Shown one piece after another: positions 30,836 to 31,084 of a DNA stretch of 64,000 nt. Made by a program: the position numbers and the translations under genes. Numbering within the stretch: position 1 is the first letter of the stretch; each line of letters opens with the position of its first letter. The DNA lies in contig OZ076409.1 in NCBI GenBank assembly GCA_964187785.1, positions 51,896,001 to 51,960,000 of the forward strand, given 5' to 3'. The notes under the pieces are model-generated. The model ran no database searches. It worked only from the letters and a program-made list of their open reading frames with translations, and was not told where the DNA came from. The DNA comes from Amphiscolops sp. MND2022 (lineage: Eukaryota).

Positions 30836-31084
30836 ATGAGTGAGACTCTAGCAAAAGTATTAGTAGGAGCGTTTTTTATTGTCATAACTACTAGCTTGTT
30901 TATATATACAGTAAGGACTACAGAAAAAATGGGACGAAATCCCGATCCCTGCATTGAAGAGTACAAAGACTATTGTATGAACGAAGGAGAATGTTTTAGT
31001 CATGTGGAGGAAAACATTATAGGTTGCCTTTGTCCGCCACTTTACGGAGGGAAACGCTGTGATAAGTTCTTGTGGTGGTATTAG
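30836..31084 (+). CDS. EGF-like growth-factor protein (N-terminal hydrophobic segment + one EGF domain)
   Basis: VLVGAFFIVITTSLFIYTV, then C-x7-C-x5-C-x10-C-x-C-x8-C with NEGEC and YGGKRC. Confidence 0.85.
   Translation: MSETLAKVLVGAFFIVITTSLFIYTVRTTEKMGRNPDPCIEEYKDYCMNEGECFSHVEENIIGCLCPPLYGGKRCDKFLWWY

Follow-up and report, generated by a model that had tools for sequence, protein, structure and literature searches.

The window, a stretch of 64,000 nucleotides from Amphiscolops sp. MND2022 (GenBank assembly GCA_964187785.1, contig OZ076409.1, positions 51,896,001 to 51,960,000), contains a short gene whose product resembles epidermal growth factor receptor (EGFR) ligands. The gene lies within a Maverick/Polinton element, the features of which are collected in Table 1.

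The EGF-like gene and its element

The first-pass annotation had placed an intronless gene inside a Maverick of about 17 kb. This was borne out, as the element has long terminal inverted repeats with AG...CT ends, a 6-bp target-site duplication, and an integrase and a packaging ATPase above the Pfam cut-off. Further ORFs have the size and order expected for pPolB, capsid proteins and adenain; pPolB and the capsid ORFs are without a Pfam match, and adenain stays below the cut-off. We take the polymerase ORF to be pPolB from its sequence motifs, and the capsid ORFs to be such from sequence features and the usual Maverick gene order. The 134-aa ORF is presumably PLA2X-like, judged by a His-Asp motif; it found no support in Pfam or PDB, and is 42% identical to a homolog in another element.

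Table 1. Features of the window; positions are counted from its first letter.
Feature	Position	Strand	Basis or remark
Maverick/Polinton element, 17,450 bp	23402..40851		AGTAG...CTACT ends, target-site duplication, core genes
Left 6-bp target-site duplication	23396..23401		
Right 6-bp target-site duplication	40852..40857		same as left
Left terminal inverted repeat, ~600 bp	23402..23999	+	arms 98-99% complementary
Right terminal inverted repeat	40275..40851	-	arms 98-99% complementary
pPolB-type polymerase ORF	24024..28040	-	no Pfam match
C2H2 zinc-finger ORF	27946..28356	-	Pfam search; overlaps polymerase ORF
192-aa ORF of unknown type	30191..30769	+	conserved upstream neighbor of EGF gene
EGFR-ligand-like gene, 82 aa, intronless	30836..31084	+	ORF reading, PDB ranking
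Hydrophobic signal/anchor segment, aa 8-26	30857..30913	+	mean KD 2.3; continuous helix in model
EGF module Cys39-Cys75, spacing 7-5-10-1-8	30950..31060	+	includes Tyr70 and Arg74
7-residue aromatic tail	31061..31084	+	Trp at Cys6+5, stop at Cys6+8
Two arrays of a 31-bp tandem repeat	31099..31555		between EGF gene and convergent 250-aa ORF
250-aa ORF of unknown type	31775..32527	-	downstream neighbor of EGF gene
134-aa ORF, PLA2X-like label	33830..34234	+	by His-Asp motif only
Packaging ATPase	35054..35884	+	Pox_A32 E 9e-7
Retroviral-like integrase	36380..37318	+	rve E 6.9e-11
Minor capsid, core-like and major capsid ORFs	37321..39847	+	gene order; syntenic homologs in second lineage
Adenain-like protease	39849..40238	+	Peptidase_C5 E 0.0065, below cut-off

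Some further observations concern the surroundings of the gene. The zinc finger and the polymerase are two overlapping ORFs in the window (24024-28356) and a single ORF of 1,422 aa in an element of the second lineage described below. Tandem repeats of 52 bp at 28654-28819 lie where the polymerase and 208-aa ORFs diverge, in a non-coding gap that is likely a regulatory region. A 150-aa ORF at 34237-34689 differs from its older copies by a net dS of about 1.4 and in 75 codons, while few differences are seen in its neighbors, a pattern that points to a module exchanged among Maverick subfamilies. A satellite array with a unit of about 102-104 bp is located at 14670-18900, and a syntaxin-like SNARE exon of a host gene at 46158-46421 (Pfam SNARE E 5e-4).

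The protein is composed of a hydrophobic run, a 12-residue linker, a single EGF module and a 7-residue tail. EGF-type ligands of EGFR/ErbB receptors have the cysteine spacing CX7CX4-5CX10-13CXCX8C. The initial description of an 82-aa ORF with a signal or anchor segment, EGF/TGF-alpha-type spacing, a YxGxRC motif (here YGGKRC) and no C-terminal transmembrane (TM) region agrees with what was found, the protein ending 7 residues after the sixth cysteine. The gene had also been assigned to the EGFR-ligand type rather than to calcium-binding repeats, with a HMMER comparison proposed as a check. In phmmer searches of PDB, the window ORF matched HB-EGF best (E 2.8e-7) and the first 13 of 35 matches were ErbB ligands or an ant EGF mimic, not structural EGF repeats; together with the conserved equivalents of Arg41 and Tyr37 of EGF, this ranking supports the assignment. 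Using a profile of the whole family, 28 ErbB-ligand or EGF-mimic entries headed the 36 PDB matches (E 4e-11 to 2.7e-6) and the first Notch match followed at E 5.3e-5. A Notch-type or calcium-binding EGF repeat was rejected as a candidate, since only one domain is present and Notch ranks below the 28 ligand entries. Pfam did not call EGF in the window ORF at E≤0.05, but its EGF model does score in relatives of this ORF. The AlphaFold model of the protein reached a pLDDT of 75 and a pTM of 0.42; Foldseek returned nothing for it at E≤0.001, with HB-EGF first among the PDB entries. Top scores in an ESM Atlas comparison were 0.85 (EGF) and 0.83 (epigen), to be taken as a lead only. A predicted complex of the EGF domain with the EGFR ectodomain of Symsagittifera roscoffensis as a stand-in scored 0.28 against a mark of 0.34, which counts neither for nor against binding.

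Two positions known for receptor contact are occupied in the window ORF: Arg74 precedes the sixth cysteine and corresponds to Arg41 of EGF, and the hydrophobic Trp80 (Cys6+5) takes the position of Leu47 in a register set by the cysteine offset, whereas HMMER aligned Trp80 to the Trp pair of EGF. In EGF, binding depends most strongly on Arg41 and Leu47, the former pairing with Asp355 of the receptor (PMC4282322). An Ig domain, the criterion of NRG-type ligands, was found neither in the 82-aa ORF nor in the host donor exons matched to the cellular ligand P0075 (see below). On the opposite strand, an antisense ORF of 82 codons (30860-31108) was taken as a shadow of the gene: the in-register antisense frame is free of stops in 14 of 20 old copies and the sense frame in 19 of 20, the exact span of the ORF lying outside this test.

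Relatives in the host genome and in databases

An orthologue of P0075 (signal peptide, EGF, TM region, cytoplasmic tail) is located in the host genome (C5:29.807-29.819 Mb); the codon between its Cys4 and Cys5 is split by a GT-AG intron. A splice site between these cysteines and a nearby TM region characterize EGFR-ligand genes (PMC1618406); the C5 gene has this intron and an EGF module just before the TM region, while the Maverick gene is intronless and has an N-terminal anchor. By DNA search, the C5 region is single copy, the lone extra match (52 bases) being a Maverick copy. An NRG-type query against the same genome gave no match at E≤1e-9. The spliced EGF module of the host gene is 67% identical to an 89-aa family of the second Maverick lineage, 46% to the window's family and 59% to P0075. 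Identities to the host gene range from 37 to 67% for 24 small proteins, compared to 23-37% for 8 other EGF matches. The aromatic C-terminal tail is common to the host ligand and the Maverick genes, and in all six Maverick genes tested from this genome the stop falls at Cys6+8, where the host gene continues to its TM exon. The earlier proposal of a captured host gene is supported by this single-copy cellular ligand, whose Cys4-Cys5 intron is absent from the Maverick genes and whose spliced EGF module and tail match them; at the level of sequence, capture from the host ligand and subsequent retention are well supported. Third codon positions of the host gene and the closest family are near saturation (13/29 and 10/29 shared), and therefore a recent capture is not shown.

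AU tests on 46 columns, run after six long-branch outgroups had been removed, did not reject a single Maverick clade (p 0.59) or a cellular clade (p 0.63), and two outgroup EGFs fell inside the group in the full tree. Trees on these 46 columns do not distinguish a single capture from multiple ones. The phylogenetic signal of EGF domains is low (PMC4914847). As a separate observation, the host ligand is less similar to P0075 in the EGF module (59%) than in the signal exon (85%) and the cytoplasmic exons (74-79%), a difference that is possibly conflict-driven.

Searching the genome with P0075 gave 151 matches, with the best 150 of 616 candidates scored; nearly all are multi-copy, intronless and end right after the EGF module. 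ATPase, integrase and capsid genes adjoin the EGF gene at 8 of 9 places fetched with flanks. These elements form a second lineage (lineage B), identical to the window element by about 47% in the ATPase, about 51% in the integrase and about 31% in the major capsid protein. All six lineage-B elements followed to the far end contain a pPolB-type ORF, 23-26% identical to that of the window over long stretches. Four of the six have terminal inverted repeats and exact 6-bp duplications, one has a duplication matching in 5 of 6 bp, and one is without clear ends. Lineage-B elements have the EGF gene as their first ORF, some 220-230 bp from their left end, which is not where the window's element has it. 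The same kind of EGF gene is thus retained in two very distant Maverick lineages of one genome. An intact member of 111 aa at C11:56.087 Mb has no Maverick core gene within 10 kb on either side and may be a stranded copy or belong to an element that was truncated.

When 1.84 billion proteins were searched with a profile, 97 matches were obtained. All six cysteines, together with the Arg and with Trp at Cys6+5, are kept in 20 of these, 17 of which end at most 3 residues past the Trp; many of the remaining matches look like decayed members. Three of the 17 are 90-100% identical to families of this genome, two 58-69% and twelve 29-59% (one over 44 aa only). Two family proteins searched in the genome had no close match (best 52%; none at 1e-17) and therefore probably come from other genomes. 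In P0110, a homolog of the 192-aa neighbor is read into an EGF relative. Viral and metagenome contigs gave 5 and 16 pattern matches to related loci, none of which was confirmed, and phage records gave none.

Residues were counted in 20 hand-picked intact small proteins. At 25-74% identity, the six cysteines, Asn49, Tyr70 (Cys5+4), Arg74 (Cys6-1) and Trp80 (Cys6+5) are invariant in all 20, and every member has a tail of 7-8 aa and a hydrophobic 19-mer. Their anchor segments comprise 17-34 uncharged residues; Lys or Arg stands on the N-terminal side in 16 of 20, and the linker contains an N-glycosylation sequon in 14 of 20. Because of these long uncharged segments, basic N-terminal sides and linker sequons, type II anchoring appears more likely than a cleaved signal peptide.

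Genomic copies and selection

The genome was searched with the window gene, and the best 150 of 632 candidates were scored, a list that favors intact copies. Among these 150, 22 proteins including that of the window are identical, and 94 are near full length at ≥90% identity, 92 of them stop-free. By hand count, 123 of the best 150 of 632 lack an internal stop, so the ORF is not disrupted in most of these copies; such disruption had been named as an outcome speaking against the ligand reading. DNA of the window element aligns to all 30 top loci. A sample of older copies was picked from the more diverged rows (20 of 49, mostly with open frames); Maverick genes adjoin the EGF gene in all 20, with the 192-aa ORF upstream in 19 and the 250-aa ORF downstream in 17. 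Apart from this, an inverted duplication of the element's left half at C2:28.43 Mb brings two EGF genes face to face, and more close pairs occur among the copies.

Between 30 young and 20 older copies, the dN/dS comparison suggested in the first-pass annotation gave a net value of 0.12 for aa 37-82, pointing to purifying selection, and 1.5 for aa 1-36; neighboring genes gave 0.03-0.28 in the same copies. In the EGF domain, codon differences between the groups (N3:S6) contrast with those private to single old copies (N41:S9; Fisher p 0.006), a test based on 9 fixed codon differences and on non-random copies chosen mostly for open frames. Young copies are too alike to reveal selection. Between subfamilies, purifying selection thus acts on the EGF domain, which has been preserved in the lineage that replicates, as have the other genes of the element. 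In the N-terminus the corresponding numbers are 13:3 between groups and 19:11 private (N:S; p 0.32). These 36 codons (30836-30943; 13 nonsynonymous, 3 synonymous) may represent a relaxed, diversifying or swapped anchor.

A candidate ligand of the host EGFR

Two host EGFR genes with kinase exons were found, on C3 and C7. A kinase exon is 83% identical to that of S. roscoffensis and 78% to that of Convolutriloba macropyga, followed by values of ≤58%, so that the host is probably a convolutid acoel. The EGFR L1 exon, used as a query for a full-length relative, gave none. In the C3 receptor, Gly-Asp-Ile-Trp stands at the place of Gly-Asp355-Ser-Phe in human EGFR. The domain III exon of the C7 paralog (73.64-73.70 Mb) seems, by eye, to lack the Gly-Asp motif and is reminiscent of Hofstenia egfr-like.

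At the sequence level, homology to the host ligand, intron loss, a fixed truncation point and purifying selection are established, as are the conservation of receptor-contact residues and the presence of the partner Asp in one host receptor. We infer that acoel Mavericks took the EGF module from a host type-I EGFR-ligand gene, probably via spliced mRNA that was retrotranscribed. The module and seven further residues would have been kept, the TM and cytoplasmic exons dropped, and the module put behind an N-terminal hydrophobic anchor. The product would probably be a type II membrane-tethered, possibly shed ligand, and its C-terminal tail would be free in this topology, just as type-I ligands gain a free tail through shedding. 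The receptor bound would be the host EGFR with the Asp355 equivalent; the ligand, presumably an agonist, would push the carrier cell or its neighbors to a state or place favoring replication and heritable integration. Neoblasts are the dividing cells and the source of the germline in acoels, and they and germline precursors would be the most plausible targets. We consider it fairly probable that the gene is such an agonist virokine, i.e., a host-derived, membrane-tethered EGFR ligand benefiting the element. In Hofstenia, a single-EGF ligand (NRG-1) and the receptor EGFR-1 are needed to localize dividing neoblasts at wounds, and RNAi of nrg-1 or egfr-1 is reported there not to reduce overall proliferation (PMC13046036). 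Therefore a simple mitogen role is not a given, and recruitment or survival of stem cells would be as plausible as mitogenesis.

An anchored EGF on the particle membrane or the producer cell could instead target or enter EGFR-positive stem cells, with signaling incidental. The seemingly uncleaved anchor of the family (17-34 uncharged residues, basic N-terminal side in 16 of 20) and the capsid, ATPase and protease genes of the element agree with such an entry or tropism factor. However, no fusogen-sized membrane protein is present among the element's ORFs, in the window's lineage the EGF gene and the capsid genes are not close together, and double-jelly-roll polinton particles are generally taken as non-enveloped; although nematode Mavericks have gained a fusogen (10.1101/2022.07.12.499685), we regard this role as unlikely. 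It is still somewhat harder to see the protein as an antagonist or decoy that dampens signaling, for example in wound or defense responses or superinfection, by binding the host EGFR or retaining it in the secretory pathway. The Trp replacing Leu at Cys6+5, the tether in reversed topology and a second host EGFR, which would be a non-signaling partner if the Gly-Asp motif is indeed missing, speak for it, but Trp and tail are features of the host ligand, since both the host gene and P0075 carry them, and the poxvirus analogs are agonists (PMC13705586).

Flow of sequence in the reverse or in both directions, in which the abundant Maverick copies gave rise to the host EGF exons or converted them, would explain why one Maverick family (67%) resembles the host EGF module more than the orthologue does (59%) when the flanking exons are 74-85% identical to the latter. 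We judge it very improbable, as the host gene shows the ancestral Cys4-Cys5 intron along with all parts of a type-I ligand gene, the near-saturated third positions leave no room for recent conversion, and a tree joining the two cellular genes was not rejected (p 0.63). The reading with the least to recommend it is a neutral passenger or a structural EGF repeat without a receptor role. It draws on the missing Pfam EGF call for the window ORF, on young copies too similar to show selection and on many decayed database relatives; yet purifying selection is confined to the EGF domain, receptor-contact positions are invariant across 24-74% identity and the gene is retained in two distant lineages, by which this reading is largely refuted.

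The agonist reading has its nearest parallel in the poxvirus growth factors (vaccinia VGF/C11R, and those of myxoma and Shope fibroma virus), likewise intronless, virus-borne, single EGF modules of ErbB-ligand type. VGF has a C-terminal TM region and the leporipox factors are without one; the Maverick protein, known here from its genes, has an N-terminal anchor and no C-terminal TM region. VGF is an autocrine and paracrine activator of EGFR and promotes spread (PMC13705586). Poxvirus ligands group with different host ligands, and the viral EGFR ligands covered in the accessible text of PMC1618406 are from poxviruses only. In contrast, the carrier here is a 17-kb integrating Maverick of an invertebrate with well over a hundred germline copies, and the donor is an acoel ligand, the nearest cellular relative being acoel and not vertebrate. 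The Maverick EGF would accordingly be a functional analog of the poxvirus factors, not a poxvirus gene. With animal EGF-type ligands (TGF-alpha, HB-EGF, epigen; Hofstenia NRG-1 with a single EGF and a TM region) it shares the cysteine spacing, the Tyr37 and Arg41 equivalents and a single EGF without Ig, and EGF-only proteins with zero to two TM regions count as EGF-type (PMC4914847); it differs in lacking an intron, a juxtamembrane TM region and a cytoplasmic tail, in its reversed topology, and in being mobile and multi-copy. Other Maverick or adintovirus cargo (PLA2X, GasderminX, Oncoid, Bcl2/IAP; PMC8502044) and nematode Maverick cargo (WASP proteases, KRMA kinases; 10.1101/2022.07.12.499685) is also non-core and host-modulating or host-derived, but none of those listed is an extracellular ligand of a receptor tyrosine kinase, and the nematode cargo includes intron-bearing genes. 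Neither "EGF" nor "growth factor" appears in the main text of PMC8502044, 10.1101/2022.07.12.499685 and PMC11131425, and no report of a Maverick-borne EGF was found in the literature searched, which has most subscription journals and the supplementary genome maps of PMC8502044 outside its scope.

Judged by its sequences, this is a real, selected, host-derived family of EGFR-ligand-like genes of acoel Mavericks: the virus-like elements carry a small, intron-free version of the worm's own EGFR-ligand gene. To our knowledge, EGFR growth-factor mimicry among viruses is known mainly from the large poxviruses. That the acoel elements carry such a gene and keep it under selection suggests that they use it to signal to host cells, in the way poxviruses use their growth factors. 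The selection on this EGF gene and its presence in distant lineages argue for an effect of the elements on other cells, more in keeping with a virus-like phase than with one confined to the genome. Since the peptide is small and both host receptor and donor gene are named, in animals whose EGFR signaling steers pluripotent stem cells, the germline route of Mavericks becomes a directly testable question. Possibly, though we hold this doubtful, acoel Mavericks as a group pursue a growth-factor strategy at stem cells, in which the host EGFR ligand was captured by, or exchanged between, distant lineages and is still being adjusted by them to the receptor of the host, and activated elements draw or hold neoblasts as their route to the germline. 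If so, hundreds of potential ligand genes would face one cellular gene and may set the dose of EGFR signaling in regeneration.
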